This document shows, in pieces, positions 833-19,471 of a DNA stretch of 64,000 nucleotides (the first letter of the stretch is position 1; every line of letters begins with the position of its first letter). Under the pieces are notes generated by a model that was given only the letters and a program-made list of their open reading frames with translations, made no database searches and was not told where the DNA came from. This DNA is from Mycobacteriales bacterium (GTDB lineage: Bacteria > Actinomycetota > Actinomycetes > Mycobacteriales > SCTD01). Made by a program: the position numbers and the translations under genes. Location: positions 24,747-88,746 of the forward strand of contig JBBRNK010000014.1 of NCBI GenBank assembly GCA_038230355.1, given 5' to 3'.

Positions 833-1324
833 TCAGACGACCTCGCGCAGGGTTCCCTTCGTGACGTCGTAGACGAAGCCGCGCACGGAGTCCTTCAGCG
901 GGATGGACGGCTCGGCGTGGATGCGCGCGATGCTCTGCCGCACGTCGATGTCGAGGTCGCTGAACGCCTCGGTCGACCAGGACGGCTTGATGCCGGTGTC
1001 GGCCAGGACGGCGGCCTTGAACTCGTCCTCGGTGAAGGTCAGCATCCCGCAGTCGGTGTGGTGGATCAGGACGATCTCCTTGGTGCCGAGCAGCCGCTGG
1101 CTGATCGCCAGCGAGCGGAGCTCGTCCTGAGTGATGACGCCACCGGCGTTGCGGATGACGTGGGCGTCGCCCTCCTGCAGCCCGAGCAGGCCGAAGGGGT
1201 TCAGCCTCGCGTCCATGCACGCGACGATGGCGATCTGCTTGGCCGGCGGCAGGGGCAGGTCACCCTTGTCGAAGCTGGCGGCATACGCCTCGGCGTTGCT
1301 GAGCAGCTGGTCGGTCACGGACAT
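833..1324 (-). CDS. beta-class carbonic anhydrase
   Basis: 163 aa. Zn-ligand motifs VACMDARL and HHTDCGM are present; size and layout match small actinobacterial beta-CAs. Confidence 0.9.
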   Translation of the reverse strand: MSVTDQLLSNAEAYAASFDKGDLPLPPAKQIAIVACMDARLNPFGLLGLQEGDAHVIRNAGGVITQDELRSLAISQRLLGTKEIVLIHHTDCGMLTFTEDEFKAAVLADTGIKPSWSTEAFSDLDIDVRQSIARIHAEPSIPLKDSVRGFVYDVTKGTLREVV

Positions 1325-1424: not shown

Positions 1425-2210
1425 TCAGCGAGCCCCGACCGCTGTCGCGCCACCGTCGACGGTGACGACCTCGCCGGTGGTCGCCGGGAACCAGGAGGAC
1501 AGCAGCATCACGGCGGCCTTCGCGATCGCCTCCGACGACGTGGCTGACGAGGCGTCCCAGCCGAGCGGTGCCCGGGCGGCGTACTCCTCGACCAGGCTGG
1601 TGTGGCCGGGAAGCGCGCGGGCGAGCAGGGTCACGACGGGTCCGCCGGCGACCAGGTTGACGCGGACACCACGCGGTCCGAGCTCGCGGGCCAGTGACCG
1701 CGCGGTGGCGGCGAGGGCCGCGTGCGAGACCTGGAGCCAGTCCGGGTCACCCCACACCTGGGAGGTGTTCTGGGTCAGACCGACGACCGCAGATCCTTTG
1801 ACCAGCAGGGGATCCAATGCATGGGCGACCGCCGCCAACGACCAGGCGGTCACTTCGAAAACCTGGCTGGCAAGCGACCAGGGGGTACCCGCGAAGGTGG
1901 TCGCGTCGAAGCCCTCCGGCAGGTAGCCGAGGGCGTGCACGACCCCGTCGACCCGGTCCCAGCCCGCCTCGCGCACGGCGTCGGCAAGCGCGTCGAGGTC
2001 CTGCTGGAGGGTGACGTCGAGCTCGAGCACCGGCTCGGCGACACCGAGCCGCGGTGCGACCCGGCTGGTGAGGCGGTGGGCGCGGCAGACCGGCGAGGTC
2101 AGCAGCACCTCGGCCCCCTCGGCGAGGGCCAGCCGCACGACCGCGCTGGCCAGGCTTGACTCGGTCAGGACGCCCGTCACGACCACCCGGCGCCCGGCCA
2201 GCAGGCTCAC
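1425..2210 (-). CDS. enoyl-ACP reductase (FabI/InhA)-like paralog lacking the catalytic Tyr and Lys
   Basis: 261 aa, collinear with the canonical FabI at 8204..8959 (VTGVLTESS N-terminus, ...FPATTGEVVTVDGG C-terminus). Where the canonical copy reads PGYDWMGVAK, this copy reads GDPDWLQVSH (Tyr->Pro, Lys->His). 4-nt overlap with the upstream ACP gene. Confidence 0.8.
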   Translation of the reverse strand: MSLLAGRRVVVTGVLTESSLASAVVRLALAEGAEVLLTSPVCRAHRLTSRVAPRLGVAEPVLELDVTLQQDLDALADAVREAGWDRVDGVVHALGYLPEGFDATTFAGTPWSLASQVFEVTAWSLAAVAHALDPLLVKGSAVVGLTQNTSQVWGDPDWLQVSHAALAATARSLARELGPRGVRVNLVAGGPVVTLLARALPGHTSLVEEYAARAPLGWDASSATSSEAIAKAAVMLLSSWFPATTGEVVTVDGGATAVGAR

Positions 2211-2470
2211 GACGAGGGCCGGTCAGCGACCTTGGCCGCCACGAGGTCCACGAAGGTCCCGAGGTGCCTGGTGCCCGCGATCTCGTCCTCGGGCAGGGAG
2301 ATCCCGAGAGCGTCCTCGACTGCCATGGCGAACTCGATGAGCGCGAGCGAGTCGACGCCGAGGTCGTCGACGAAGGACACGTCCTCGGCGAGCTCCTCGG
2401 GCGCCAGGTCGAGCAGGCTGACGGCCTGGTTGCGCACCACCTCGAGGACTGCCGCTCGCTCCACCCGCAC
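2207..2470 (-). CDS. acyl carrier protein (ACP-1)
   Basis: 87 aa, acidic, with phosphopantetheine attachment motif DDLGVDSLALIE. Confidence 0.9.
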   Translation of the reverse strand: MRVERAAVLEVVRNQAVSLLDLAPEELAEDVSFVDDLGVDSLALIEFAMAVEDALGISLPEDEIAGTRHLGTFVDLVAAKVADRPSS

Positions 2471-2478
2471 GACAGTAG

Positions 2479-3993
2479 TCAGCCCTTGGAGCCGATCGGC
2501 AGCCCCGCTGACTCGGCGTCGGCCAGAGCGGCGCGATCGAGCTTTCCGTTGGCATTGCGGGGGAGAGCTCCCAGGACCCGCAGTGGCCTCGGGACGGCGT
2601 GCGCCCCGAGCTCCTCCTGCACGTGACGACGCAACGCGGGCAGGTCCACCTCGACGCCGGGAAGGGCGACGACCGCGGCCGCGACGTTCTGCCCCGCGAC
2701 AGGGGACGGCACCCCGAACGCTCCCGCGTCGGCGAGCTGACCGCTGCCCATGAGGGCTCGCTCGACCTCCTGCGGGTAGACGTTGACCCCGCCACGCAGG
2801 ATCAGGTCGACGGCCCGACCAGCCAGCGACAGGTATCCGTCTGCGTTGAGCCGACCGAGGTCACCGGTCCGCAGCCACCCGTCCGAGGTGACTCGCAGCC
2901 GCTCCTGGTCACCCCAGTAGCCGGGGGTCACGACCGGCGACCTGACCCAGACCTCCCCGACCTCGCCCGCTAGGACGGCCCGATCGGTCCCGTCCACGAC
3001 CCTCAGCTCGGCGTAGGGGACGGCGCGGCCGACCGTCCCCGGCCGGTCGGCCCCGTCAGGCAGGTGCGTGACCGGGGCGCACGTCTCGGACAGGGCGTAG
3101 ACGTCATGCAGCTCGATCTTCGGGAGGGCGGCACGCACCCGGTCGAGCGTTCCTGCGGGGGCGGGGGCTCCGCCGTACACGGCGAGGCGCACAGCGGTGA
3201 GGGTCGCGAAGCCGTCGCAGCGCAGCAGGCCCTCCCAGATGCTCGGCACCACGTCCAGCCACGTCACTGCGTGCTCGCGGGCAGTCGCCACGAGCAGGGG
3301 CGCGGTGTAGTCCGCCATGGTCACCGCCGAGCCGCCGCTGTGCATCGCCGGGCCGAGCTGGGTGAGGTGGCCGGACACCCAGCTGAACGGCAGGTGGATC
3401 GCCGTCCGGTCGTCCGGCCCCAAGCCCAGTGCCGCGGCGTAGAACTCGGCGGCGTGACCGGCCATCCGCCCGGTGACGCGCACCGCCTTCGGCCTGCCCG
3501 TCGTCCCACTGGTGGGGATGAGCATGTACGTCGTGTCCTCGGCCGGCAGCTCCCCCCTCAGGTCCCACTGACGTGGTGCGGTGATCAGAACCCCTGCAGC
3601 GTCGGCGATCTCTCTTCCACCCAGGGTCCTGGCCAGCCCCGGCTGGGCGAGCACGACTGCCGGGTCCACCAGCTCGAGCAGCTCCTCGTGCCGCGCCCGC
3701 GGGGCGTCGACGGGCAGACCGACGAAGACCAGTCCGGCGCGGGCGCACGCCCAGATGGCGACAGCGCTCTCGAGCCCGTTGCGGGCGAGCAAGGCGACCC
3801 GGTCCCCTCGGCTGAGTCCGCTTCCGAGCAGCTGCGTGGCCGCGCCCTCGACCAGGTCCGCGAACTGCGCGTAGGTCACCGTGCGGCCGAGGGCAGGGTC
3901 CAGCAGCAAGGCCCGATCGGGCCAGGCCCTGCTCGCGGTGTCCAGGATCTCGACCACCGAGGTCGGCCTGGTCCCGAGCGGCCCCGCGGTCAT
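2479..3993 (-). CDS. AMP-dependent acyl ligase (acyl-CoA/acyl-ACP synthetase family)
   Basis: 504 aa. Adenylate-forming motifs TSGTTGRPKAV, YGGAPAP, GWLRTGDLG and a C-terminal NGKLDR. Confidence 0.85.
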   Translation of the reverse strand: MTAGPLGTRPTSVVEILDTASRAWPDRALLLDPALGRTVTYAQFADLVEGAATQLLGSGLSRGDRVALLARNGLESAVAIWACARAGLVFVGLPVDAPRARHEELLELVDPAVVLAQPGLARTLGGREIADAAGVLITAPRQWDLRGELPAEDTTYMLIPTSGTTGRPKAVRVTGRMAGHAAEFYAAALGLGPDDRTAIHLPFSWVSGHLTQLGPAMHSGGSAVTMADYTAPLLVATAREHAVTWLDVVPSIWEGLLRCDGFATLTAVRLAVYGGAPAPAGTLDRVRAALPKIELHDVYALSETCAPVTHLPDGADRPGTVGRAVPYAELRVVDGTDRAVLAGEVGEVWVRSPVVTPGYWGDQERLRVTSDGWLRTGDLGRLNADGYLSLAGRAVDLILRGGVNVYPQEVERALMGSGQLADAGAFGVPSPVAGQNVAAAVVALPGVEVDLPALRRHVQEELGAHAVPRPLRVLGALPRNANGKLDRAALADAESAGLPIGSKG

Positions 3994-5036
3994 GCGCGCA
4001 GGGCCTCCAGGGTGGCCGCACGGATGCCGGCGGCCTGGCTGTGCACCACCTGGAAGGCGGCCGCCCGGAGCAGCCGCTGGGCCGGGTCGGCCAAGTCCAT
4101 GCCTTGCCCGCCACGGGCCGTCAGCAGGGCCGTGGCGGACTCGATGCCCAGCAGCAGGGCTTGCGCGCGCGCGGCGAGCCGCTCGTCGTTGCGCTCGTTG
4201 AACGGGGCGGTGTCGAGGAGGTCGTAAGCGGTGGCCCGGACCGCGAGGACCCGCTCCCTCAGCGCCGCCGCCGTCTCCGGGGAGCGGACCTCGAGCAGGT
4301 CCAGCGCCGCCAGCGCGATCCCGAAGGTCGACGGCTGCACGTTGGTGTTGGCGGAGGCGTCGACGGCGAAGAAGTCCTTGTACGGCAGGAGGTTCAGCAC
4401 CTGGGAGGCTTTCATCCGGAGCCCGTCGAACGCGAGCGCGTGGGTGGAGGTGCCCCCCATCGCGGCGAGGTCCAGCAGGCCGGTGCTGCGCAGGCCGGCG
4501 CCCTCGCGGGCGGGCACGAGGCCGAAGACGATCTCGTCGGTCTCACGAACGACGGCACCCACCACGAGCACGTCGACCAGGCCCCAGCCGGTGCACCACG
4601 GCTGGGTACCGGTCAGGACGTAGGCGTCACCGTCTCGCTCGGCGAAGATGCTCGGCTTGGGCGTGCGGACGTGGCTGTAGGAGACCCCTCCCTGCACCGC
4701 CCCGCTGACCAGGTCTGCAAGGTAGGTCTCCCGGAGCGCCTGGTTGACGGTGCTCGCGACCATCTTCAGGACCGGGCCGTGCTGGAACCACACGAACCAC
4801 AGGTCCGGGCTGGCCCCGGCCAGCAACTCGATGACGGCCCGTTGCTCGTCGGTGCCGGCGCCCCCGAGCTCGACCGGGGCGTAGGTGCCGTAGAGCCCCG
4901 CCTGCGCCAGCATCTCGGTGTCGGCGCGCGTGACCCCTTCCCGCTCCAGCCGGGCGGCGTCGCCGACGAGCGCCTCCCGGAGCTCGGTGGCGCGGGTGAG
5001 CAGTATCCCGGGGGCAGTGGTGGCTGTGAGTGTCAC
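3990..5036 (-). CDS. acyl-CoA (or acyl-ACP) dehydrogenase family protein
   Basis: 348 aa with ACAD-like layout (N-terminal helical region, WCTGWG mid-domain, C-terminal helical bundle). 4-nt overlap with the ligase gene. Shorter than classical ACADs, and I could not see the usual C-terminal catalytic Glu context. Confidence 0.7.
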   Translation of the reverse strand: MTLTATTAPGILLTRATELREALVGDAARLEREGVTRADTEMLAQAGLYGTYAPVELGGAGTDEQRAVIELLAGASPDLWFVWFQHGPVLKMVASTVNQALRETYLADLVSGAVQGGVSYSHVRTPKPSIFAERDGDAYVLTGTQPWCTGWGLVDVLVVGAVVRETDEIVFGLVPAREGAGLRSTGLLDLAAMGGTSTHALAFDGLRMKASQVLNLLPYKDFFAVDASANTNVQPSTFGIALAALDLLEVRSPETAAALRERVLAVRATAYDLLDTAPFNERNDERLAARAQALLLGIESATALLTARGGQGMDLADPAQRLLRAAAFQVVHSQAAGIRAATLEALRA

Positions 5037-5073
5037 CTCTATGACGGTAACCGCCTGCGACCGGACGGGCGCG

Positions 5074-6246
5074 TCAGGGGGCCAGGACGATCGAGCCGTT
5101 GTGCCCGCCGAACCCGAAGCTGTTGCTCACGGTCGGGCCCGGCTCCCACGACCGGGGCGCGAGGACGACGTCGACCTCGAGGGAGGGGTCGACCTCGGTC
5201 GTGCCCATCGTCGGCGGCAGCTCGCGGTGGTGGAACGACAACAGCACGGCCGCTGCCTCCAGGGCGCCGGCCGCGCCCAGTCCGTGGCCGGTCACACCCT
5301 TGATCGATGTGACGGGCACCGCGCCCGGACCGAAGACGGTGGCGACAGCCTGAGCCTCCGCCTGGTCGTTCAGTGGGGTCGAGGTGCCGTGGGCGTTGAC
5401 GTGCCGCACCTGGTCGGGGGTGAGGCCGGCGTCGTCGAGGGCCAGCCGCATGCAGGCGGCCGCCCCGACCCCACCGGGGCTGGGAGCGGTGATGTGGTGG
5501 GCGTCGCAGGTCGACGCGGTGCCGACGATCTCGCCGTACACGTGGGCACCCCTGGCGAGGGCCTGCTCGCGCTCTTCCAGCAGCAGCACGCCGGCCCCTT
5601 CGGACAGGCAGAAGCCGTCCCGGCCGGTGTCGAAGGGGCGGCTGAGACCGGTCTCGGACAGCGCGGTCATCTTGGTGAACGCCCCCACGGTCACGCCGTT
5701 GACCGAGGCCTCGGCACCGCCGGCGAGCACGACGTCGCAACGCCCGTCGAAAATCATCCGGGCACCGGCACCGACGCTGTGCGTGCCCGCCGCGCAGGCG
5801 GTCGTCAGCGTTTCGCACGGGCCACGCCACCCCAGGCGGAGGCTGACCGAAGCGGCGCCCGCGTTGGGCATCACCATCGGGATCGTGAACGGCGAGACGC
5901 GACCCGGCCCGCGCTCCGCCAGCACCCCGCACTGCACCTGGAACGTGTTGATCCCGCCGATCCCGGTCCCGAGGCTGACCCCGGCGCGGTCCGGGTCGAG
6001 GTCAGGAAGGCCGCCGGCGGTCGCCATCTCGGCGGCCGCGATCGCGAAGTGCGTGAAGCGGTCGTGGTGGCGCTGCTCCTTCGGCGACAGCCACTGGCTG
6101 GCATCGAAGTCGTCGATAGTCCGGACGCGCCGCTGCCCCGGCTCGGTCTGCAGGCCCTTCCAGAACGCTTCGAGGCCGATGCCGGCCGGTGACACGACCC
6201 CGATGCCGGTGACGACGACGCGACGCGGGGGCGGGTAGGCCTTCAC
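5074..6246 (-). CDS. beta-ketoacyl-ACP synthase, elongating KAS I/II (FabF/KasA-like) type
   Basis: 390 aa, GTG start. Cys-His-His triad contexts are present: TTACAAGTHS, NAHGTSTP, KGVTGHGLGAAG. Confidence 0.9.
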   Translation of the reverse strand: MKAYPPPRRVVVTGIGVVSPAGIGLEAFWKGLQTEPGQRRVRTIDDFDASQWLSPKEQRHHDRFTHFAIAAAEMATAGGLPDLDPDRAGVSLGTGIGGINTFQVQCGVLAERGPGRVSPFTIPMVMPNAGAASVSLRLGWRGPCETLTTACAAGTHSVGAGARMIFDGRCDVVLAGGAEASVNGVTVGAFTKMTALSETGLSRPFDTGRDGFCLSEGAGVLLLEEREQALARGAHVYGEIVGTASTCDAHHITAPSPGGVGAAACMRLALDDAGLTPDQVRHVNAHGTSTPLNDQAEAQAVATVFGPGAVPVTSIKGVTGHGLGAAGALEAAAVLLSFHHRELPPTMGTTEVDPSLEVDVVLAPRSWEPGPTVSNSFGFGGHNGSIVLAP

Positions 6247-6297
6247 GGCACCGAGCCTACGTCCGGGATACGGCGCCGGGTGGGGCAGGATCTCCGG

Positions 6298-7179
6298 ATG
6301 CGCACCGCTCTCGTGTTCCCCGGGCAGGGATCGCAGCGTCCCGGCATGGGCGCCGCGTGGACCTCGACCCCCGGCTGGTCCCTCGTCGCCGAGGCCTCCG
6401 CAGCCCTGGACCGCGACCTGTCGTGGTTGCTGCTGGAGGCCGACGCCGAGCAGCTGCGCCAGACGAGGGAGGCTCAGGTCGCGACGTTCCTCGTGTCCCT
6501 GCTCGCCCTACGGGCCCTGCCGGAACTCGTCGTGAACAACGTCACGGTAGTCGCCGGTCACTCGCTCGGGGAGTACACGGCACTGGTCGCCGCCGGGGTC
6601 CTGTCCGAGGCTGACGGCCTCCGGCTGGTGGCCGAGCGCGGGGAGGCCATGCAGGTCGCCGCCGAGGCTGCGCCGGGGACGATGGCAGCTGTGTTGGGCC
6701 TGCCCGACGAGCAAGTGGCCGCGGCCTGTCCCGACGGAGTGTGGGTCGCCAACCTCAACGCCCCGAGCCATGTCGTGGTCTCGGGCGGGGTCCCGGCAAT
6801 GGCCGGGGCAGCAGACCTCCTGAAGGCCGCCGGAGCCCGCCGCGTCCTGCCGCTGCCGGTCGGTGGCGCCTTCCACACCCCGCTCATGGCGCCGGCCCGG
6901 GAGCGCCTCGACCGCGCCCTCTCGCAAGCGGTGTACGCCGCGCCGACGCTGCCCGTCCTCGCCAACGTGACCGCTTCCCCGTACCCGACAGGGGTTGCCG
7001 CCCTGCTGTCCGAGCAGCTGACCGCGCCCGTCCGCTGGCGACAGACGCTGGAGGCCCTCGACGTCGACCGGGTCGTCGAGGTCGGGCCCGGAGGTGTGCT
7101 CACCGGCCTGGTGAAGCGAACCCGGTCCGACCTGGCCGCTGGCAGCGTCACGACCCCAGCCGACCTGGCGGCGCTGTGA
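6298..7179 (+). CDS. fabD: malonyl-CoA:ACP transacylase
   Basis: MRTALVFPGQGSQRPGMG N-terminus and active-site GHSLGEYTAL. The ORF is also open from GTG 6280; ATG 6298 is preferred because a GGGGCAGGA purine tract lies 7 nt upstream. Confidence 0.9.
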   Translation: MRTALVFPGQGSQRPGMGAAWTSTPGWSLVAEASAALDRDLSWLLLEADAEQLRQTREAQVATFLVSLLALRALPELVVNNVTVVAGHSLGEYTALVAAGVLSEADGLRLVAERGEAMQVAAEAAPGTMAAVLGLPDEQVAAACPDGVWVANLNAPSHVVVSGGVPAMAGAADLLKAAGARRVLPLPVGGAFHTPLMAPARERLDRALSQAVYAAPTLPVLANVTASPYPTGVAALLSEQLTAPVRWRQTLEALDVDRVVEVGPGGVLTGLVKRTRSDLAAGSVTTPADLAAL

Positions 7180-7904
7180 CCGCCGATCCGAGCACCGCGA
7201 CCCCGAGCCGCTCGGTGCTCGTCACCGGTGGCAACCGCGGCATCGGGCTGGCGACGGCCCGGATGCTGGCAGCCCAGGGGCACCGGGTCGCCGTGACCTA
7301 CCGGTCCACGGTCCCTGAGGGCCTGTTCGGGGTGCGTTGCGACGTGACCTCGACGGCCGAGGTCGACGCGGCCTTCACCGAGGTCGAGGCTGCCCACGGG
7401 CCGGTCGAGGTGCTGGTCTCGAACGCCGGCCTGACCGACGACGGCCTGCTGCTGCGGATGTCCGAGGCGTCCTTCACTCGCGTGCTCGACGCCAACCTCA
7501 CGGGCGCCTACCGGGTCGCGAAGCGGGCCTCCCGGGGAATGCTCCGGGCCCGGTGGGGGCGCCTGGTGTTCGTGTCCTCCGTCGTGGGGCTGTCCGGCGC
7601 GGCGGGGCAGGCCAACTACGCCGCGTCCAAGGCGGGGCTCGTCGGGCTGGCGAGGTCGTTGGCGCGCGAGCTGGGGGGCCGGGGCATCACCTCCAACGTC
7701 GTGGCGCCGGGCTATGTCGACACCGACATGACCGCGGCGCTCAGTGAGGCACGCAGGACCGAGCTGCTGACGACGATCCCCGCCGGGCGGACCGCCACTG
7801 CGGACGAGATCGCCACCGTCATCGCCTTCCTGGCCGGCGACGGAGCGGCCTACGTCAACGGGGCCGTCCTACCCGTGGACGGTGGGCTCGGGATGGGGCA
7901 CTGA
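7176..7904 (+). CDS. fabG: 3-oxoacyl-ACP reductase (MabA/FabG1-like)
   Basis: GTG start in a GTGA overlap with fabD. SVLVTGGNRGIG, NYAASKAG and a PVDGGLGMGH C-terminus; closely resembles mycobacterial MabA end to end. Confidence 0.9.
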   Translation: MTADPSTATPSRSVLVTGGNRGIGLATARMLAAQGHRVAVTYRSTVPEGLFGVRCDVTSTAEVDAAFTEVEAAHGPVEVLVSNAGLTDDGLLLRMSEASFTRVLDANLTGAYRVAKRASRGMLRARWGRLVFVSSVVGLSGAAGQANYAASKAGLVGLARSLARELGGRGITSNVVAPGYVDTDMTAALSEARRTELLTTIPAGRTATADEIATVIAFLAGDGAAYVNGAVLPVDGGLGMGH

Positions 7905-7957
7905 CCCGCGCAGCCGCGTCCCGACCTCGATCGGCTGAGGCCGGATACGCTGCCGAC

Positions 7958-8203
7958 ATGGAACGCGCAGAGGTGTTGCAGGTCATGCGTGACAAGGCCG
8001 TCGAGATGCTCGAGGTCGAGGCTGACGCGGTGCAGGAGGACAAGTCGTTCGTCGATGACCTCGAGGTCGACTCGCTCTCGCTGGTGGAGTACACGATGGA
8101 GCTCGAGGACTCCCTCGGCGTCGAGCTGCCCGAGGATGAGTTGACCGACCTCACGACGATCGGCGCCTTCCTGGACCTGATCATGACCAAGGTCCCCGCG
8201 TAG
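7958..8203 (+). CDS. acyl carrier protein (ACP-2)
   Basis: 81 aa, acidic, with DDLEVDSLSLVE attachment motif. Confidence 0.9.
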   Translation: MERAEVLQVMRDKAVEMLEVEADAVQEDKSFVDDLEVDSLSLVEYTMELEDSLGVELPEDELTDLTTIGAFLDLIMTKVPA

Positions 8204-8959
8204 GTGCTGCTGGCCGGAAAGCGGTTGCTGGTGACGGGGGTCCTCACCGAGGCGAGCATCGCCTTCTCGGTCGCCCGGCTGGCTGCTGAGCAGGGAGCCG
8301 ACGTCGTGCTGTCCGGCTTCGGCCGCGCGCTGTCGCTGACCCGGCGGGTCGCCCGGCGACTGCCCGGCGACCTGCCGGTGGTCGAGCTCGACGTGACGAG
8401 CGAGGCCGACCTCGCCGCGGTGCCCGAGCGGGTCGGAGGACGGCTCGACGGGGTCCTGCACGCCATCGGGTTCGCGCCGGCGTCAGCCCTCGGGTCTGGC
8501 CTGCTCGACACCCCCTGGGCGGACGTCGGCACAGCTCTGCACGTGTCGACCTGGTCCTACGCAGCGTTGGCGCGCGCCTGCGCGCCCCTGATGCCTCCTG
8601 GCTCGTCCTACGTCGGGCTCGACTTCGACGCGCGCGTGGCATGGCCGGGCTACGACTGGATGGGCGTCGCGAAGGCCGGCCTGGAGAGCGCCAACCGTTA
8701 CCTGGCAAGGGATCTGGGCGTACGCGGGATCCGCAGCAACCTCATCGCCGCGGGGCCGGTCAAGACGATGGCCGCCAAGAGCGTCCCCGGCTTCGAGCAG
8801 TTCGAGGCCGTCTGGGACGAGCGGGCGCCCCTCGGTTGGGACGTCACCGACGCCGAGCCCGTCGCCCAGGCCTGCGTGGCCCTGCTCTCGGACTGGTTCC
8901 CCGCGACGACCGGAACCATCGTGCACGTCGACGGCGGCTTCTCGGCGGTCGGCGCATGA
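8204..8959 (+). CDS. fabI: NADH-dependent enoyl-ACP reductase (FabI/InhA type), catalytically intact
   Basis: 251 aa. GTG start abuts the ACP stop. Y-x6-K motif is intact in PGYDWMGVAKAGLES; AAGPVKT is present. Confidence 0.9.
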   Translation: MLLAGKRLLVTGVLTEASIAFSVARLAAEQGADVVLSGFGRALSLTRRVARRLPGDLPVVELDVTSEADLAAVPERVGGRLDGVLHAIGFAPASALGSGLLDTPWADVGTALHVSTWSYAALARACAPLMPPGSSYVGLDFDARVAWPGYDWMGVAKAGLESANRYLARDLGVRGIRSNLIAAGPVKTMAAKSVPGFEQFEAVWDERAPLGWDVTDAEPVAQACVALLSDWFPATTGTIVHVDGGFSAVGA

Positions 8960-9729
8960 GCACCTGGCGGCTCACCGACGCCGACTGGAACTCCTGGCCC
9001 GACGGCCTTTCCGGACCCGACCACGTCCGGCAGACCGCCGCCCTCGGTCTCGAGGGCGTCGAGCTGGGGGTTTACGACGCCTCCGTCGAGCTCGCCCCGG
9101 AGCGGCTGGCCGCGCTGCCGTCCGACGTGCCCGTCACCGACGTGCTGCTGTCGCTGACGGTCGAGCGCTGGCCAGGCGGCGCCCTGTCCGGTGACGTGGA
9201 CCGGCTCGTGACGCAGGTGCGCGCCTGCGCGGACGTCTGCCGCTCGATGGGGCTTCCCGTCCTCGGGCTCTGGCCCGGTGCCGACCCCATCGGCGCCGAC
9301 GTCGTCGAGGGAGCTCGGCGGGTCGTCGAGGCGGCCGGCGATGTCCGCGTCGCCCTCGAGTACAAGCCCGGCACAGCCGTCGAGACCGCATCGGACGCCC
9401 TCGCTCTGTGCGGGCGGGTCCCGGGCCTCGGGGTCCTGCTCGACACCGGCCACGCCTACGCAGCCGGGGAGGACCCGGCGCAGGTCGTCGACGCCCTCGC
9501 AGACCTGCTCCTGCACTGCCACCTTGGCGATGCCGACCTCGGCGGCAGCGACGACGACCTGCCCTGCGGCAGGGTGCACGACCTGAGCTCGTTCGTGGCC
9601 GCTCTCGACGCCTCGGGCTTTCGGGGCACCGCCTCCTTCGACCTGTACGGCGCGGTCGTGGCCGGGCTTGCCACCGGCCGGGAGGCCGTGCGGGAGAGCC
9701 GCGACCACGTTCTGTCGAGGCGGGTGTGA
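8956..9729 (+). CDS. sugar phosphate isomerase/epimerase (xylose-isomerase-like TIM barrel)
   Basis: ATG in an ATGA overlap with the fabI stop. Motifs VALEYKPG, LLDTGHA and HCHLGD are typical of AP_endonuc_2-type TIM barrels. Confidence 0.75.
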   Translation: MSTWRLTDADWNSWPDGLSGPDHVRQTAALGLEGVELGVYDASVELAPERLAALPSDVPVTDVLLSLTVERWPGGALSGDVDRLVTQVRACADVCRSMGLPVLGLWPGADPIGADVVEGARRVVEAAGDVRVALEYKPGTAVETASDALALCGRVPGLGVLLDTGHAYAAGEDPAQVVDALADLLLHCHLGDADLGGSDDDLPCGRVHDLSSFVAALDASGFRGTASFDLYGAVVAGLATGREAVRESRDHVLSRRV

Positions 9730-10679
9730 GGGCGGTCGTCGCCCACGGTCCCGGCGACTTCCGCCTCGAGAACCTTGACGACCCGGACGCCCCCGCCGGC
9801 GGCCTGCTGGTCCGGGTCGAGGCCACCGGGGTCTGTGCGGCCGACCGAATGCTCTGGACCGGCCGCCATCCCTGGGGCGAGCTTTCGTGGCCGTTCACGC
9901 CGGGCCACGAGGTGGTCGGGACGGTCGTCGCCGGCCGCCTGCCGGTCGGGACGAGGGTGACCGCGGAGGTCAAGCTGCCCTGCGGCTCCTGTGCGTTCTG
10001 CGCCCGTGACGAGCAGCACCTGTGCCCGCACGGCCTGCATCTGGGCAGCGGGATCCCCGGCGGCTTCGCCGAGCTGCTCGCCCTGCCGCCGGCAGCGAGG
10101 GTGCACGAGGTACCCCTGACGCTCACCCTCGAGCAAGCCGTGCTCGCCGAACCGATGGCCTGCGCGCTGCACGCGGTCCGACGGGCCGGCGTGCGCGACG
10201 GCGACCGGGTCCTCGTCGCAGGCCTCGGAGGTCTCGGGGCGCTAGCCGTCACCGCGGCCCGCCACGCGGGAGCTGCGCGCGTAACGGCACTGGTGCGGAC
10301 CGACGAGAAGGCTCGGCTGGCAACCGATCTCGGCTACGACGACGTTGTGCGCCGGCCCACCGAGTCGTCGTACGACGTGGGGGTGGACGTGAGCGGGTCG
10401 GTCGACGCGGTCGCGGCCGTGCTGGCCGCCGTGAGGCCTGGGGGTCGGGTCGGCGCGTACGGCGTCTACGACCGGCCACTCGTGCTGGACCTGAACCAGC
10501 TGGGCGAGTTCGGCGAACGCTCCCTGGCCGGCGGGCACCTCGCTCCCAGCTGCTTCCCGGAAGCCATCGCCCTGCTCGCGCAGGTGCACGGCGTCGTCAC
10601 CGGCAGCCACCCCCTGGAGCGCGTCGCCGACGCGTTCGCCCCACGACCGCAGCGCATGAAGGAGATCGTGGTCCCGTGA
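9726..10679 (+). CDS. zinc-dependent medium-chain alcohol/polyol dehydrogenase
   Basis: GTGA overlap start. Catalytic-Zn context GVCAAD...GHEVVG, structural-Zn cluster CGSCAFCARDEQHLC, and nucleotide fold VAGLGGLG. Confidence 0.85.
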   Translation: MRAVVAHGPGDFRLENLDDPDAPAGGLLVRVEATGVCAADRMLWTGRHPWGELSWPFTPGHEVVGTVVAGRLPVGTRVTAEVKLPCGSCAFCARDEQHLCPHGLHLGSGIPGGFAELLALPPAARVHEVPLTLTLEQAVLAEPMACALHAVRRAGVRDGDRVLVAGLGGLGALAVTAARHAGAARVTALVRTDEKARLATDLGYDDVVRRPTESSYDVGVDVSGSVDAVAAVLAAVRPGGRVGAYGVYDRPLVLDLNQLGEFGERSLAGGHLAPSCFPEAIALLAQVHGVVTGSHPLERVADAFAPRPQRMKEIVVP

Positions 10680-11323
10680 CGCCCCGGCAAGCCGACCTCG
10701 TGGAGCAGCTCATCACCGTCGGCCGCAAGGCCGTGGCCGCAGGCATGGTCATCGGGTCCGGCGGCAACCTGTCGGCCCGCGAGCCCGGCAGTGACGAGTG
10801 CGTGGTGACCTGCTCCGGCTCGTGGCTCGACGAGCTGCGCCCAGAAGACTTCTCGGTGGTGGCGATCGATGACGGCACCGTCCGTGGCGGTCACCCGAAG
10901 CCAAGCAGCGAGGCGATGCTTCACCTGGCGACCTACCGGGTCCGGGCGGACGTGAACGCGGTGATCCACCTGCATCCGCAGACGTCGGTCCTGCTCGACG
11001 CCCTCGGCAAGGACATCCGGCTGCTGACGATCGACCACGCCTACTACGTCCGCGAGGTCCGCTCCACCCCCTTCATCCAGAGCGGTACCCCGGAGCTGGC
11101 GGAGGCCGGGGCCGCAGCCGTCGCCGACGGCTGCAACTGCGTGATCCTCGGCCACCACGGCTGCTCGGTCCTGGGCGAGACCGTCGAGCTCGCCCACAAG
11201 CGGGCCGCCAACCTCGAGGAGGCAGCGCGGGCCACCCTGACGATGCTGCAGCTCGGGGACACGACGACCGCCTGCCCCCCGGAGTACCTTGCCCGCGTGC
11301 GTGCCGGTGAGGGCTCGGTCTAG
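10676..11323 (+). CDS. class II (metal-dependent) aldolase/adducin-family protein
   Basis: GTGA overlap start. GSGGNLSAR, SSEAMLH, VIHLHP and GHHGCSVLG match the fuculose/ribulose-phosphate aldolase-epimerase family. Confidence 0.85.
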   Translation: MTPRQADLVEQLITVGRKAVAAGMVIGSGGNLSAREPGSDECVVTCSGSWLDELRPEDFSVVAIDDGTVRGGHPKPSSEAMLHLATYRVRADVNAVIHLHPQTSVLLDALGKDIRLLTIDHAYYVREVRSTPFIQSGTPELAEAGAAAVADGCNCVILGHHGCSVLGETVELAHKRAANLEEAARATLTMLQLGDTTTACPPEYLARVRAGEGSV

Positions 11324-12709
11324 ATGCTGCTGGTCGCCGGCCTGGACCTCGGCGGGTCGTCGGTGAAGGCCTGGGTGCAACAGGTCGGTGGCCCAATGGT
11401 CGCCTCGATCACGGTTCCCACGGTGACGGATCGACAGGGGTTCCGGGCCGAGTTCGACGCCACCTCCTGGGAAGCGGCGTGCCACGAGGCACTGGGGGCC
11501 GTCACCAAGGACCTGGCGGGTGAGTGGCTGGGAGTGACCGTGAGCTCGCTGCGACAGGGCTTCGTTCTCCTCGACGCCGGCGGCGGGGTGCTCGGTCCCG
11601 GGGTCCTCAACAGCGACCGGCGAGGGGCTCCCTACGCGCACGTGCTCGACGGGCAGCACTCCCTCACCGGTCACTGGCCGGCACCGGAGCTCACGTTGCC
11701 CAAGCTGCTCGCCGTCAAGGCCGAGGAGCCGGACCGGTGGGCACTGACGGCCCGCGTCCTGTTCCTGCACGACTGGCTCGTGAACGCCATGACCGGCGAG
11801 CAGGTCACCGAGGTGTCGTACGCCTGCGCCGGCGGCATGGCCGACGTCGCCCGCAGAGGCTGGGCCCGCGACCTGCTCGCGGCCTGCGGCATCCCAGACG
11901 GCCTGCTGGCTCCGATCGTGGAGGCCGGGACCGTCGTCGGGTCGCTGCAACCGGGGTGGGCACTTCCGACCGGGCTGCCGGTCGTGGCGGGCTGCGGTGA
12001 CACCCAGCTGGCCGCGATGGGCGCCGGCGGCCTCAGCGACGCCGTCGTGACCGTCGTCGCCGGCTCGAGCACCCCGGTCCTCGCCGCGACCCGCACCCCC
12101 GTCACCGATCCGCTGGGTCGGCCCTGGATCTCGACGCACGCGGCACCGGACCTGTGGGCCGTCGAGGGCAACGCCGGCTACCCCGGGTCCTTCTCCGGCT
12201 GGTGGGCGGGCATCGTCGACGCACCGTTGGCCGACGACCCCGGCGGCGTCGTCGCCGTCACCGCGGTCGAGCTGTGGTCCCAGCGCACCTGGGAGACCAA
12301 ACCTCCCTGGTCCCTGCTCCACCTGAGCCCGACGACCACCCCGGGCCAGGTACGCCGGGCACTGCTGGAGGCGCACGCGTTCTCGGTCGCGGCAGGCGTC
12401 GACGACCTCGCCCGGTTGCTCGGACCGGCCCGCCACGTCGTGGTCACCGGCGGTGCCGCTACTGACGGGGAGCTCCCAGCGCTGCTCGCGACCGTCCTCG
12501 GCCGCGAGGTCCGCTGGGACCGCGAGCCCAGCGCCGCCGCAGCCGGCACGGCCCTCGTCGCCCGCGCCCTCGATGCCGGCCCTGCCGACGAACACACCCT
12601 CCGACTCCCCCGAACCCCCCGCTCCCCGGGCGATCTCGCTGCCCTGGGCGACAGGCGCACGCAGTGGACCCAGGCCGTCGAGGCCCTGCGCGCGGTGGCC
12701 CCCTCGTGA
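11324..12709 (+). CDS. FGGY-family carbohydrate kinase
   Basis: ATG directly after the TAG of the aldolase gene. N-terminal GLDLGGSSVKAW and GCGDTQLAAMGAG motifs. Confidence 0.85.
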   Translation: MLLVAGLDLGGSSVKAWVQQVGGPMVASITVPTVTDRQGFRAEFDATSWEAACHEALGAVTKDLAGEWLGVTVSSLRQGFVLLDAGGGVLGPGVLNSDRRGAPYAHVLDGQHSLTGHWPAPELTLPKLLAVKAEEPDRWALTARVLFLHDWLVNAMTGEQVTEVSYACAGGMADVARRGWARDLLAACGIPDGLLAPIVEAGTVVGSLQPGWALPTGLPVVAGCGDTQLAAMGAGGLSDAVVTVVAGSSTPVLAATRTPVTDPLGRPWISTHAAPDLWAVEGNAGYPGSFSGWWAGIVDAPLADDPGGVVAVTAVELWSQRTWETKPPWSLLHLSPTTTPGQVRRALLEAHAFSVAAGVDDLARLLGPARHVVVTGGAATDGELPALLATVLGREVRWDREPSAAAAGTALVARALDAGPADEHTLRLPRTPRSPGDLAALGDRRTQWTQAVEALRAVAPS

Positions 12710-13647
12710 AGGCCCTCGTCACGGCGGAGTTCACCGCCGAGGGAATCCGGCGTCTGGAGGCGCTGGGCTACACGGTCGACAGGGCCGGCTGGGGCATGAC
12801 CCGGCGGGCCCTCGACCGGGCACAGCTGGTTGCTGCCGCCGAGGGCGCCGAGCTCCTGGTGACCGAGATCGAAGTCGTCGACGCCGACGTCCTCGCGGCC
12901 CTGCCCGACCTCCTGCTCGTCGCGACGGCCCGGGGTGGACCGGTCAACGTCGACCTGGCGGCGTGCACTGCTCGCGGGATCCCCGTGCTGTTCACGCCAG
13001 GGCGCAACGCCGACTCGGTTGCCGACTTCGTGGTCGGCACCGTCCTGTCCCTGGTCCGCGGCATAGCAGCCTCCGAGCGGCACCTGCGCGACACCGGATG
13101 GAACGTCGACGACGAGCTGCCCTACCTGCACTTTCGGGGACCCGAGCTGTCCCAGCTGACGGTCGGGGTCGTGGGCAACGGCGCGATCGGGGTCCGCGTC
13201 GGGCAGCGGTTCCGCGACGGTTTCGGGACGACCGTCGTCGTCCACGACCCGGTGCAGGGCATCGGGCCGTCGCTCGGCGAGCTCGCCGACCAGGTCGACC
13301 TGCTGACCCTGCATTGCCCACGCTCGCCCGCGACCCGGGGCCTGGTCGACGCCGCCCTGCTGGACCGCCTCGGGCCGGGCTGGATCGTCAACACTGCCGG
13401 CGGCGGCATCGTCGACGAGCAGGCCCTGTGCGACGCCCTCGATGCGGGCACCTTGCGCGGCGCAGCCCTCGACGTCTTCAGCTCCGAGCCACTCCCCAGG
13501 GACAACCGCCTGCTCCGCACACCTGGGCTGCTGCTCACCCCTCACCTGGCGGGGGCGGCCGACGACGTCGTGCGCCATCACACTGACCTGATCGTCGCCG
13601 ACGTCGAGCGCTGGCACCGTGGCGAGCCCCTGCTGCACCGCGCCTGA
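12706..13647 (+). CDS. D-isomer-specific 2-hydroxyacid dehydrogenase family protein
   Basis: GTGA overlap start. GVVGNGAIGVRVG NAD fold, and catalytic His in LLLTPHLAGAA. Confidence 0.85.
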   Translation: MKALVTAEFTAEGIRRLEALGYTVDRAGWGMTRRALDRAQLVAAAEGAELLVTEIEVVDADVLAALPDLLLVATARGGPVNVDLAACTARGIPVLFTPGRNADSVADFVVGTVLSLVRGIAASERHLRDTGWNVDDELPYLHFRGPELSQLTVGVVGNGAIGVRVGQRFRDGFGTTVVVHDPVQGIGPSLGELADQVDLLTLHCPRSPATRGLVDAALLDRLGPGWIVNTAGGGIVDEQALCDALDAGTLRGAALDVFSSEPLPRDNRLLRTPGLLLTPHLAGAADDVVRHHTDLIVADVERWHRGEPLLHRA

Positions 13648-13731
13648 CCCGCTGAGCGGCACAAACGGCGGTGCATGCAACACTGGTCGTCACTCATTAC
13701 GGGCTATTCCGTACCGTCACCTAGGAGCCAC

Positions 13732-14952
13732 GTGCGCCGCCTGCTCGCCACCGCCACCCTCGCCACCCTCGCGCTGAGCGCGTGCGGCTCCGGCTCGACC
13801 AGCGCCACCCCCAAGGCCAGCGGTGCAAGCTTCGCCGACGTCCTGACCCAGGCCAAGGGCCAGACCGTCAACTGGTACATGTACGGGGGGGACGACACCA
13901 TCAACGGCTTCGTCAACGGCTACGTCGCCGACAAGCTCAAAGCCCTCGGGGTCACGCTGAACCAGGTCAAGATCACCGACACGGTCACCGCCGTCGACAA
14001 GGTGCTCGCGGAGAAGCAGGCAGGCACGAAGGACGGCTCGGTCGATGCGATCTGGATCAACGGCGAGAACTTCGCGACCGGCAAGCAGGCCGGTGCGTGG
14101 TACTGCGGCGGCGACAAGAAGCTGGCCAACGCGAAGTACGTCGACTTCACCAAGCCGGCCGTCGCCAACGACTTCGGGCTGCCCGTCGACGGCTGCGAGT
14201 CGGTGTGGCAGCAGGCCAACTCAGCCCTCGTCTACGACAGCTCCAAGCTCACCGCGGACGACGTCAAGAGCGTGAGCAGCCTGTTCGCCTGGGCGACGGC
14301 GCACCCGGGCCAGTTCACCTACCCGGCTCCCCCGGACTTCACCGGCTCGATGGCCGTCCGCACCTTCTTCTACGACACCAACGGCGGTCCGACCGGGTTC
14401 AAGGGAGCCTTCGACAAGGCCACCTACTCGCCGGCCGCCACCAAGCTGTGGGACCGGCTCAACGCCCTCAAGCCCAGCCTCTACAAGAAGGGCGCGACCT
14501 ACCCGGCCGGCCAGCCCGACGTCGAGAAGCTGTTCGCCAACGGCGAGGTCGCCGCGTTCCTCACTTACGGCCCCGGCGGGGTCGGCGACCAGGTCACCAA
14601 GGGCGTCTATCCCAAGACCACCCGCGAGGCCGTCCTCGACGTCGGCAACATCAGCAACTACAGCTTTCTGAGCATCCCCGCCAACAGCCCGCACAAGGCC
14701 GCCGCCCAGGTGCTCGAGAACGTCCTGCTCGACCCGCAGACTCAGCTGCAGTTCTACAAGCTCTCGGGCAGCTTCCCCGCCATCGACCTCGCCAAGCTCA
14801 CCACCGCTGAGCAGGCGCAGTTCGCCGCCGTGAGCACCAGCCCCTCCGTGCTGCCCCTGACCGAGTTGACCAAGAACGCCCAGCCGGAGCTCACGAGCGG
14901 TTACGTCACCGCGATCGAGAAGGACTGGAAGACCAACGTCCTCCAGAAGTAG
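13732..14952 (+). CDS. ABC transporter substrate-binding lipoprotein, YnjB-like
   Basis: GTG preceded by AGGAGC. Signal peptide with lipobox (LALSAC). The body resembles E. coli YnjB-type binding proteins (VLAEKQAG...GSVDAIWINGENFATGKQAG). The ORF is also open from 13675. Confidence 0.8.
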   Translation: MRRLLATATLATLALSACGSGSTSATPKASGASFADVLTQAKGQTVNWYMYGGDDTINGFVNGYVADKLKALGVTLNQVKITDTVTAVDKVLAEKQAGTKDGSVDAIWINGENFATGKQAGAWYCGGDKKLANAKYVDFTKPAVANDFGLPVDGCESVWQQANSALVYDSSKLTADDVKSVSSLFAWATAHPGQFTYPAPPDFTGSMAVRTFFYDTNGGPTGFKGAFDKATYSPAATKLWDRLNALKPSLYKKGATYPAGQPDVEKLFANGEVAAFLTYGPGGVGDQVTKGVYPKTTREAVLDVGNISNYSFLSIPANSPHKAAAQVLENVLLDPQTQLQFYKLSGSFPAIDLAKLTTAEQAQFAAVSTSPSVLPLTELTKNAQPELTSGYVTAIEKDWKTNVLQK

Positions 14953-15013
14953 CCGCGTTCCCCGGGGACTGCGCATCGCCCTGCTGCTGAGTCCTGCGCT
15001 CGGCCTCGTCGGC

Positions 15014-19281: not shown

Positions 19282-19471
19282 GCGACACAACCTACTGTTC
19301 GCCGGCGCGCGACAGGGCCATGCTGGCGGGCGTCCGCCCTGGTCGAAGGCTGCCCCAACTGGCCGACGGACACAGACCGAGGAAAGTCCGCCCGGCGCCA
19401 CCTCCGCCGACCACGGGCAGGACAGAACCTTGCAGCAGTCCCAGCCAGGCCAGCCTGGGCCCAGCAAAGGC

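Follow-up and report, generated by a model that had tools for sequence, protein, structure and literature searches.

Genes of type II fatty acid synthesis (FAS-II) lie beside genes for AMP-forming acyl ligases in the first part of a 64-kb stretch of DNA (the window) from a Mycobacteriales bacterium, contig JBBRNK010000014.1. The window has a G+C content of 72%, and its closest relatives are uncultured 'Frankiales/Mycobacteriales' metagenome-assembled genomes (MAGs), whose loci are numbered below (e.g., L028). The stretch from 1 to 24 kb is fully tiled by annotated genes, and the part from 1.4 to 23.7 kb, about 22 kb, is a conserved neighbourhood found so far only in uncultured Frankiales/Mycobacteriales-type Actinomycetota. 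Beyond the FAS genes, this neighbourhood holds a second ligase, an aldehyde dehydrogenase, a methyltransferase, an ArsR regulator, enzymes of nucleoside-cleaving and sugar-phosphate types, and an ABC transporter. An initial annotation of the window had named nine genes between 1425 and 8959. Open reading frames (ORFs), Pfam and NCBIfam confirm all nine. They encode acyl carrier proteins (ACPs), a 3-ketoacyl-ACP synthase (KAS), a protein with the acyl-CoA dehydrogenase (ACAD) fold and other enzymes, in two divergent groups:

1425 to 2210, minus strand: FabI-2, a degenerate FabI fold (PF13561, 167 bits; PRK07889, 264 bits, under the cut-off of 299)
2207 to 2470, minus strand: ACP-1 (PF00550, 48 bits; DSL serine present; under every ACP equivalog cut-off)
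2479 to 3993, minus strand: Lig, an AMP-forming acyl ligase of the ANL family (PF00501, PF13193)
3990 to 5036, minus strand: ACAD-fold protein of an uncharacterised clade (weak Pfam matches; best NCBIfam match SfnB, 48 bits)
5074 to 6246, minus strand: KAS, a KAS II-type elongating ketosynthase (PRK07314, 417 bits, cut-off 387; TIGR03150, 430 bits, cut-off 494)
6247 to 6297, no strand: divergent control region of 51 bp, with -10-like boxes 6-7 nt before each start codon
6298 to 7179, plus strand: FabD-type malonyl-CoA:ACP transacylase (PF00698; TIGR00128, 257 bits, cut-off 261; GHSLGE motif)
7176 to 7904, plus strand: FabG, a MabA-like 3-oxoacyl-ACP reductase (GTG start; NF040605, 369 bits; PRK12826.1-2, 230 bits, cut-off 222)
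7958 to 8203, plus strand: ACP-2 (PF00550; best equivalog score 59 bits, cut-off 84)
8204 to 8959, plus strand: FabI-1, an InhA-like enoyl-ACP reductase (PRK07889, 402 bits, cut-off 299)

The genes within each group are closely coupled. The 4-nt overlaps reported earlier at 3990-3993 (ACAD-fold/Lig) and 2207-2210 (ACP-1/FabI-2) are present, other junctions of the minus-strand KAS-ACAD-Lig-ACP1-FabI2 operon are also close, and a further GTGA overlap joins fabD to fabG. The gene content given for 1425-8959 is correct, but the plus-strand operon extends beyond 8959. The stop codon of fabI shares ATGA (8956) with the start of the following gene, and 4-nt or zero-gap junctions run from fabD to a 2-hydroxyacid dehydrogenase gene ending at 13647. 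The continuation of the conserved neighbourhood into sugar, transport and aldehyde genes had thus been missed. KAS (start 6246) and fabD (ATG 6298) are separated by 51 bp, as reported, and the N-terminus of FabD reads MRTALVFPGQGSQ. An alignment of the window with L001, L003, L028 and L030 gives 40-52 bp for this divergent region. Conserved in all of them are TAGGCT, 7 nt ahead of the KAS GTG (minus strand), and CAGGAT, 6 nt ahead of the start codon of fabD (plus strand); these boxes suggest back-to-back transcripts of the leaderless type. A scan of 1-20 kb for sigma-70 consensus promoters finds no promoter-like sites, and terminator-like sites there are at chance level. The same order, from the importer binding protein via fabD to KAS, recurs in the independent MAG contig L028 with 86-100% protein identity; therefore, the arrangement is not an assembly artefact.

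The plus-strand genes and KAS have the residues expected of a working elongation set: the GHSxG motif in FabD, Cys-His-His in KAS, and the catalytic Tyr and Lys in both FabG (YAASK) and FabI-1. In KAS, the triad lies in TACAAG, NAHGTSTP and GVTGHGLG (aligned to Thermus FabF, 1j3n). Thermus FabF is also the best match in the Protein Data Bank (PDB) at 352 bits, against 228 bits for KasA, and these matches place KAS in a different clade from KasA. F149, Y158 and K165 (Y-x6-K) are all present in FabI-1 and its orthologues, and FabI-1 is accordingly predicted to be a bona fide enoyl-ACP reductase. These proteins are also well conserved: KAS at 76-96% identity in many MAGs, FabI-1 at 78-95% in related MAGs, and ACP-2 at 100% in L028 and about 80% in distant MAGs. 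In L016, L017, L019, L020/L045, L039, L050 and L051, a third type of ACP (motif LGVDSLAAIEW) is encoded directly upstream of the window-type KAS gene; the window has no such ACP, and its KAS operon begins with KAS itself.

Two FAS-II functions are missing. The initial annotation had reported that FabH and a dehydratase do not occur in or next to the locus, and this now extends to all Pfam-scanned genes of the 64-kb window. No initiating KAS III is present, and no 3-hydroxyacyl-ACP dehydratase (FabZ/FabA/HadABC) or other hot-dog enzyme of the FabZ/FabA/MaoC type occurs there or in the annotated related loci. FabH is likewise absent from the window-type clusters inspected (the window itself, L045, L050 and L051). 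The missing dehydratase is not anomalous in itself, because actinobacterial had genes are normally unlinked.

A canonical operon for comparison is found in L054, a 917-kb MAG contig. Here, a FabI2-ACAD-Lig operon is followed by genes for a PucR-type regulator, FabD, FabH, AcpP, a KasA-like KAS and an accD-like carboxyltransferase. The L054 FabH scores 296 bits with TIGR00747 (cut-off 292), and its ACP passes the AcpP equivalog cut-off (91.6 vs 84). The KAS gene is frameshifted, and the best solved relative of its product is KasA of M. tuberculosis, with 267 bits over 236 residues. Known operons of this kind are fasR-fabD-fabH-acpP-fabF in Streptomyces and mabR-fabD-acpM-kasA-kasB-accD6 in M. 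tuberculosis, and by gene content and order the L054 operon is assigned to the canonical actinobacterial type. The window proteins are only 43% (FabD), 34% (ACP-2) and 49% (KAS) identical to those of the L054 operon, while window-type KAS is 76-79% identical across MAGs as distant as L054. The window ACPs score at most 59 bits against ACP cut-offs of 66-146, and neither passes any of them. Thus the window ACP, KAS and FabD do not behave as orthologues of the housekeeping AcpP/AcpM, KasA/FabF and FabD. Because of the 34-49% identity, the much higher conservation of window-type KAS at the same distance, the FabF-like KAS and the sub-cut-off ACPs, the window set is classified as a paralogous second FAS-II-like system. 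This corrects the view of the core as housekeeping-style, and the presence of a canonical operon in a related MAG lends indirect support to the proposal of specialised rather than bulk synthesis. Note that a FabI-1 orthologue (75-79% identity) also lies near the canonical operon in L054, so a FabI-1-type enoyl reductase may be shared between the two systems.

The window set resembles mycobacterial and other actinobacterial FAS-II (mabR/fasR-fabD-[fabH]-acpM/acpP-kasA-kasB-accD6; mabA-inhA; hadABC unlinked) in being dissociated and in having FabD, ACP, a Cys-His-His KAS, a MabA-like FabG, an InhA-like FabI-1 and an unlinked dehydratase. Unlike that system, the window KAS, FabD and ACPs are paralogous copies, the order is fabD-fabG-acp-fabI divergent from KAS, and FabH, a PucR-type regulator and accD are absent. 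Its genes also share operons with ligase, ACAD-fold, FabI-fold and sugar-type genes.

The ligase branch consists of Lig and ACP-1 in the minus-strand operon and of a second ligase gene some distance away:

22171 to 23712, minus strand: Lig2, a second AMP-forming ligase (PF00501, PF13193; 38% identical to Lig)

Both ligases retain the P-loop (TSGTTGRPK in Lig), the A5/A7/A8 motifs and the A10 lysine, and are predicted to be catalytically intact. Lig (504 aa) aligns end to end with FadD13 (33-516) with short gaps only. It had been asked whether Lig carries the insertion that separates fatty acyl-AMP ligases (FAALs) from fatty acyl-CoA synthetases. The FAAL-specific insertion of about 20 residues, which blocks CoA transfer, was not found, and the FAAL class was rejected for Lig. 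This does not exclude loading of an ACP, since some ACP-loading ligases also lack the insertion. ACP-1 groups with the ACPs inside the Lig2/FabI-2/Lig operons of L018, L025, L007 and L038, while ACP-2 forms a separate group, and ACP-1 orthologues always lie within a ligase/FabI-2 operon. The earlier suggestion of a ligase with a private ACP is therefore strengthened: an intact adenylating ligase adjoins a stand-alone ACP in conserved synteny, as in starter-unit cassettes. Lig2 belongs to the same association. In distant MAGs it is the first gene of a Lig2-(ACP)-FabI-2-ACAD-Lig operon; its orthologues (67-79% identity) are found upstream of FabI-2 in L012, L014, L017-L019, L023-L025 and L037, and others adjoin window-type FAS clusters in L050 and L051.

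The other two proteins of the minus-strand operon have lost the residues that define the activities of their families. FabI-2 aligns over its full length with InhA, its best PDB match (163 bits), and retains the fold and the N-terminal dinucleotide loop. Compared with InhA, however, Y158 is replaced by Pro, K165 by His and F149 by Gln, and FabI-2 lacks both the catalytic Tyr/Lys and a score above the FabI/InhA family cut-off. All orthologues in the fetched loci lack the dyad, with variable replacements (P, Q, L, A or S at Y158; H, Q, R or A at K165). Among the 120 closest database homologues, Tyr is missing in 118 and Lys is missing in 118. As many as 97 other alignment columns are at least 95% conserved; therefore, the FabI-2 family appears to be under selection and yet not to be a canonical enoyl reductase. 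The initial annotation had counted two FabI paralogs, which is true of the fold but not of catalysis, and a second enoyl reductase in the minus-strand copy is not supported. FabI-2 homologues carry the public labels 'enoyl ACP reductase', 'meromycolic acid enoyl-ACP reductase' or 'FabI'. A beta-carbonic anhydrase gene (833-1324, minus strand) immediately adjoins FabI-2, with the same adjacency in L001.

The ACAD-fold protein presents a similar picture. Its AF2 model (pLDDT 91, pTM 0.90) has the three-domain ACAD fold. IVD is the top Foldseek match (TM 0.77-0.82), and TM scores to IVD, SCAD and BCAD together span 0.74-0.82; the sequence match to IVD (51 bits) covers the N-terminal and middle domains only. 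In the HMMER alignment, the catalytic Glu of S. meliloti IVD (DYER motif) falls on T231, within an N-T-N-V-Q loop (N230-Q234) that has no Asp or Glu at the IVD/LCAD-type base position (E254/E261). The position of MCAD E376 is S333, within an invariant VHSQA motif, and hence neither known catalytic-base position holds a carboxylate. In the wider family (292 representatives at E<=1e-30 among 1.84 billion), A, G or S occupies the position of MCAD E376 in 115 of 123 representatives. The R-x-x-F-G loop that contacts FAD (R-x-Q-F-G) after helix G is deleted (alignment to 4kto), while the beta-domain W-x-T motif and the GGxG motif are retained. The label 'ACAD-like' thus holds for the fold but not for the catalytic base, and the ACAD-modified or desaturating step suggested earlier loses its basis. 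Since the defining residues of both activities are gone, a dehydrogenase/reductase pair is not predicted for the ACAD-fold and FabI-fold proteins.

An FkbI/ZmaI-type kinship of the ACAD-fold protein was considered and rejected, as these proteins are not among its closest sequence or fold matches. A paralogue, 36-39% identical and also without the catalytic Glu, is encoded in several loci (L016 18640-19698, L017 16136-17146, L020/L045 8046-9128, L050 7008-8075, L051 6174-7274). In L016 and L017 its gene comes just after ACP-2 (fabD-ACP2-ACAD' in L017), in the slot held by FabI-1 in the window; in L050 and L051 it is one or two genes from ACP-2, and in L020/L045 it adjoins the TIM-barrel gene. 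Cultured members of the family are only distant ones, in Streptomyces and Rhodococcus. The nearest (L052 9387-12845; Streptomyces sp. NBC_00356, CP107981.1) lies between a TetR regulator and a gene of the methylmalonyl/isobutyryl-CoA-mutase family, a context unlike that of the window. Public annotation calls the family 'acyl-CoA/acyl-ACP dehydrogenase' or 'AidB-like'. Since the catalytic residues are missing, the public labels of both the FabI-2 and the ACAD-fold families are probably systematic mis-annotations.

A pattern scan derived from the ACAD-fold alignment, with one genome per species, gave 44 loci, all of them from uncultured Actinomycetota MAGs. Counts are based on 16 loci, each flanked by 7 kb or more on either side, and FAS and PNP-like neighbours were taken within 10 kb. 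Where the ACAD-fold protein is 53-64% identical, the MAGs share a conserved Lig2-(ACP)-FabI-2-ACAD-Lig operon. In 14 of the 16 loci, the ACAD-fold gene is found together with FabI-2 and Lig. A window-type FAS gene is nearby in 10, or 11 if the canonical operon of L054 is counted. PNP-like genes (8/16), Lig2 (7/16) and sugar genes (5/16) are other neighbours, and orders and orientations vary widely. Consequently, the two operons are not adjacent in this strain only, and the link between the ligase module and the KAS/FAS set survives rearrangement. For example, all elements are packed together in a different arrangement in L045. In L007, L038 and L047, KAS is divergent from ACP-FabI2-Lig and is the only FAS gene in the vicinity. 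FAS genes are lacking in L046, where the ligase module is accompanied by genes for the importer, an aldehyde dehydrogenase, ArsR, a PNP-like protein, a 2-hydroxyacid dehydrogenase and an FGGY kinase.

The remainder of the conserved neighbourhood consists of the following genes:

8956 to 9729, plus strand: xylose-isomerase-like TIM-barrel enzyme (PF01261, 77 bits; no NCBIfam equivalog; same order in L028)
9726 to 10679, plus strand: Zn-dependent medium-chain alcohol/polyol dehydrogenase (Zn-ADH; PF08240, PF00107)
10676 to 11323, plus strand: class II aldolase/epimerase family protein (GTG start overlapping the preceding stop; PF00596, 139 bits)
11324 to 12709, plus strand: FGGY-family sugar kinase (PF00370, PF02782; XylB, 161 bits, under the cut-off)
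12706 to 13647, plus strand: D-isomer-specific 2-hydroxyacid dehydrogenase (PF02826, PF00389)
13675 to 17624, plus strand: ABC importer (YnjB-like binding protein, 13675-14952; permeases, 15014-15820 and 15817-16611; ATPase, 16608-17624)
17621 to 18577, plus strand: inosine/uridine-preferring nucleoside-hydrolase-family protein (PF01156, 50 bits; orthologues in L029 and L034)
18574 to 19467, minus strand: PNP_UDP_1 protein, nucleoside phosphorylase/nucleosidase superfamily (PF01048, 75 bits)
19472 to 19891, minus strand: ArsR/SmtB-family regulator (PF01022, 53 bits; NF033788, 62 bits, cut-off 55)
19974 to 20735, minus strand: class I S-adenosylmethionine-dependent methyltransferase (PF08241, 58 bits; NCBIfam matches weak only)
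20746 to 22161, minus strand: aldehyde dehydrogenase, aminobutyraldehyde/betaine-aldehyde dehydrogenase type (PF00171, 469 bits; PRK13473, 588 bits, cut-off 615)

The genes from PNP_UDP_1 to Lig2 (18574-23712) form an operon convergent to the plus-strand operon. The true start of PNP_UDP_1 is probably internal, because its orthologues are 238 aa long. Candidate parts of a dihydroxyacetone phosphate (DHAP) shunt or a Rha/Fuc-type route are present (FGGY kinase, class II aldolase, PF01261 barrel), but all of their NCBIfam scores are below cut-off; for the aldolase, the best are FucA-type at 103 bits and ribulose-1-P aldolase at 79 bits. The importer is better defined: the YnjB-like binding protein scores 409 bits with PRK11622 (cut-off 203), and the ATPase is PotA/PhnT-like. 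An Rfam gathering scan of the whole window finds no riboswitch or other RNA element that would name the transported ligand; its sole match is a tRNA gene (25771-25859, minus strand, 89 nt), of the long-variable-arm type judging from its length.

Several of these genes keep company with the ligase module or the FAS genes elsewhere. The Zn-ADH gene follows FabI-1 also in L025 and in the distant MAG L018, where it ends the operon fabD-fabG-ACP2-fabI1. The 2-hydroxyacid dehydrogenase is found beside the ligase module in L012/L046, L004/L048 and L020/L045, and orthologues of the importer adjoin the module in L012/L046 and L029. HTH_5 genes occupy the place of the ArsR regulator in L046, L048 and L050. 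In L019 and L039 the aldehyde dehydrogenase gene comes immediately after KAS, and in L004, L012, L020 and L024 it is found close to the module. In L048, a Mycobacteriales MAG, unusual genes flank the FabI2-ACAD-Lig operon (3771-9173 and 13347-17887): a Metallophos_2+Radical_SAM fusion, a phosphonate-type ABC importer, a 389-aa methyltransferase, a PBP_like_2 ABC system and an FAD oxidoreductase. Their annotation hints at organo-heteroatom chemistry. An arsenolipid pathway, an idea prompted by the ArsR regulators, the methyltransferases and the L048 fusion, was discarded, as the window holds no ArsM- or ArsS-type evidence and a search of the literature gave no support.

A possible function for the whole, proposed here tentatively and with less than even confidence, is that a ligase loads a non-standard acid on ACP-1 and so primes elongation by KAS within a second, FabH-less FAS-II-like set. 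A free carboxylic acid would be adenylated by Lig and/or Lig2 and loaded onto ACP-1. KAS would take the acyl-ACP-1 as primer and condense it with malonyl-ACP-2 supplied through FabD, and FabG, an unlinked dehydratase and FabI-1 would finish each cycle to give a specialised acyl chain. The acid would probably be supplied by the neighbouring genes, both co-transcribed and co-localised: the starting compound, sugar- or nucleoside-like and either imported or salvaged, would pass through isomerisation and phosphorylation before being cleaved by the class II aldolase (analogous routes give DHAP and an aldehyde), and the aldehyde would be oxidised to the acid by the aldehyde dehydrogenase. As for the ACAD-fold and FabI-fold proteins, they would most likely have a non-canonical part in binding or converting the acyl group on ACP-1, or serve as scaffolds or gates.

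Known systems offer partial parallels to such priming. FAS-II without KAS III needs another supply of primer, as in the bypasses by P. aeruginosa FabY, by the malonyl-ACP decarboxylases MadA/B and by AasS/Aas, and an acyl-ACP synthetase-like step would serve here. Unlike those systems, the window has no FabY-type KAS or YiiD-type decarboxylase, its ligases are not close to AasS, and at least one related genome has a canonical FabH. The proposed loading of a ligase-activated free acid on a private ACP before extension by a ketosynthase is also the logic of JamABC. However, JamB is a membrane desaturase and not an ACAD-fold protein, Jam feeds a modular polyketide synthase (PKS), and no desaturation can be inferred in the window.

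Several points weigh against ligase-primed elongation. The ligases resemble CoA ligases (FadD13, MenE) without the FAAL insertion, and their products could be CoA thioesters rather than acyl-ACPs. None of the sugar-type enzymes scores above an equivalog cut-off, so that the substrate and the identity of the acid are guesses. Five of the 16 loci have the ligase module without a FAS gene within 10 kb, and some of the adjacency of FAS genes and module may reflect shared ancestry rather than function. The cluster has no thioesterase, acyltransferase or other off-loading enzyme, and no specialised product is defined. Finally, the canonical operon is seen in a related MAG only, and the window organism might rely on the window set for bulk synthesis.

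The alternative that survives best, in our view unlikely but to be taken seriously, is that the two gene groups share a neighbourhood only. The FAS genes would make ordinary fatty acids, and the Lig2-ACP-FabI2-ACAD-Lig module would form, with the transporter, sugar, nucleoside and aldehyde genes, a separate salvage or catabolic pathway for a nucleoside or pentose cleaved to DHAP and a C2 aldehyde, or for an organosulfur or organophosphonate acid. Such a pathway would suit L012/L046, L004/L048 and L029, where the module has no FAS genes and is accompanied by ABC importers and PNP-like, aldehyde/2-hydroxyacid dehydrogenase and FGGY kinase genes, and ArsR-type regulators are typical of stress and salvage operons. 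The TIM barrel, the FGGY kinase, the class II aldolase and the two dehydrogenases would make a self-consistent catabolic set of the RhaA/B/D or ribulose-1-P aldolase kind. The parts list, including nucleoside-cleaving-type enzymes, is that of RhaA/RhaB/RhaD, of FucI/FucK/FucA with AldA, of the 5'-deoxynucleoside DHAP shunt and of the haloarchaeal ribulose-1-P aldolase route. Unlike in those routes, all window enzymes score under the equivalog cut-offs, the isomerase and kinase belong to other families than MtnA/MtnK, and the genes are predicted to be co-transcribed with fabI.

In a salvage pathway, the ACAD-fold protein would be comparable to non-dehydrogenase enzymes of the same fold, the SfnB/DszC-type flavin monooxygenases and the 3-sulfinopropionyl-CoA desulfinase AcdDPN7, which also lack the canonical catalytic Glu. 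SfnB is its best full-length NCBIfam match, albeit a weak one, the desulfinase and DszC are among its structural matches, and sulfonate- or phosphonate-type importers lie near the module in several MAGs (NMT1/SsuA-type or phosphonate-type binding proteins in L018, L047 and L048). In contrast to such enzymes, the window protein scores 48 bits against an SfnB cut-off of 431, flavin reductase and sulfur-assimilation genes are absent, and the gene is embedded with ACP and KAS genes. A dedicated ACP inside the module would be unusual for catabolism. Moreover, in the window, L003, L030, L007 and L038, KAS shares an operon with the module or diverges from it, and in L019 and L039 it shares one with the aldehyde dehydrogenase. 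Translational coupling links fabI-1 to the sugar genes in the window and L028 and to Zn-ADH in L018, and FAS genes stay within 10 kb in 11 of the 16 loci despite extensive rearrangement.

It is likewise unlikely, and a little less credible, that the window set is the main or only fatty acid synthase of the lineage, with Lig and ACP-1 replacing FabH or recycling exogenous fatty acids like an acyl-ACP synthetase. The FAS proteins are indeed the most conserved of the neighbourhood (KAS 76-96%, ACP-2 about 80-100%, FabI-1 78-95%), FabI-1 is the only catalytically competent FabI seen, and FabH is absent from every window-type cluster inspected. The flanks hold chromosomal housekeeping genes such as those for SerRS and Fpg, and the adjoining carbonic anhydrase would fit a supply of bicarbonate for malonyl-CoA synthesis. 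Against a housekeeping role stands L054, in which a canonical fabD-fabH-acpP-KasA-like-accD operon lies right beside the FabI2-ACAD-Lig triad and, with 34-49% identity, indicates that the window genes are paralogues. In addition, the window ACPs fail all AcpP cut-offs, and KAS is not KasA-like.

A far more specific form of ligase-primed elongation can also be imagined, and we consider it quite improbable. The two ligases would prime the FabH-less second FAS-II, on the private ACP, with a short, possibly heteroatom-bearing acid derived from salvage, through aldolase cleavage of a nucleoside- or pentose-type compound and oxidation of the aldehyde. The resulting fatty acid would be omega-functionalised or unusual in some other way, and the ACAD and FabI folds would have new non-redox roles (e.g., dehydratase, isomerase, lyase or primer gatekeeping).

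The initial annotation taken literally is the least probable of all: a cassette of JamABC or lipopeptide type, in which the ACAD desaturates an ACP-1-bound acid, FabI-2 is a second enoyl reductase and the reductive core is a housekeeping one, accords with the adjacent ligase, ACP and ACAD-fold genes with their 4-nt overlaps and with comparable cassettes of the MbtM/L/N, LipA/D/B and ZmaJ/H/I types, but it is contradicted by an ACAD-fold protein without Glu or Asp at the MCAD-type or IVD/LCAD-type base positions and without the R-x-x-F-G loop, by a FabI-2 without Tyr158 and Lys165 and with variable replacements, by a core that is not the canonical housekeeping set, and by the lack of any nonribosomal peptide synthetase (NRPS), PKS or acyltransferase acceptor in 64 kb. 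The likeness to MbtM/MbtL/MbtN (mycobactin), LipA/LipD/LipB (friulimicin), ZmaJ/ZmaH/ZmaI and FkbI-type cassettes lies in ligase, stand-alone ACP and ACAD-fold genes side by side. The window differs in that its ACAD-fold protein is without the catalytic carboxylate, its product has no NRPS, PKS or acyltransferase to receive it, a KAS II/FAS-II set is the partner, and the module includes a degenerate FabI fold and a second ligase. Of the parts of a starter cassette, a competent desaturating enzyme is missing, and 1-24 kb holds no NRPS, PKS or dedicated acyltransferase as acceptor.

Outside the conserved neighbourhood, the window has other genes of note. Further lipid genes occur within 15 kb, at 30742-31890 (plus strand), 33564-34436 (minus strand) and 35792-38317 (minus strand). 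The lipid genes nearby include a PlsY domain apparently fused to a Sua5/YciO/YrdC domain (a weak, putative ORF call), a protein of the DegV family (FakB-type, fatty-acid-binding), and a WS/DGAT of 841 aa whose N-terminus is extended by about 380 aa. An ORF of 1386 aa (25969-30129, minus strand) combines a Proton_antipo_M (DabB-like) region with a full DabA domain and looks like a fused DAB inorganic-carbon pump. A giant ORF at 55078-63999 (minus strand), of more than 2973 aa and extending past the end of the window, has repeated SdrD_B, Big_9, cadherin-like, SpaA and He_PIG domains and looks like a very large surface adhesin. A sortase gene is found at 24204-24887.

Literature searches on ligase/ACP/acyl-ACP dehydrogenase modules in Actinobacteria, on DHAP-shunt variants and on degenerate FabI paralogues yielded no description of the cluster. 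Its gene content is unusual, conserved and testable, and the function, substrate and product are what we infer from it. If ligase-primed elongation is true, widespread uncultured Actinomycetota of soil and freshwater would own an elongation system apart from the canonical FabH-dependent one, implying an undescribed class of membrane or storage lipids. Two protein families automatically annotated as 'enoyl-ACP reductase' and 'acyl-CoA dehydrogenase' would be unable to catalyse those reactions in the known way. The cluster would then provide an expressible gene set for studying FabH-independent priming and the repurposing of redox folds, and for correcting mis-annotation in metagenomic reconstructions of lipid metabolism.

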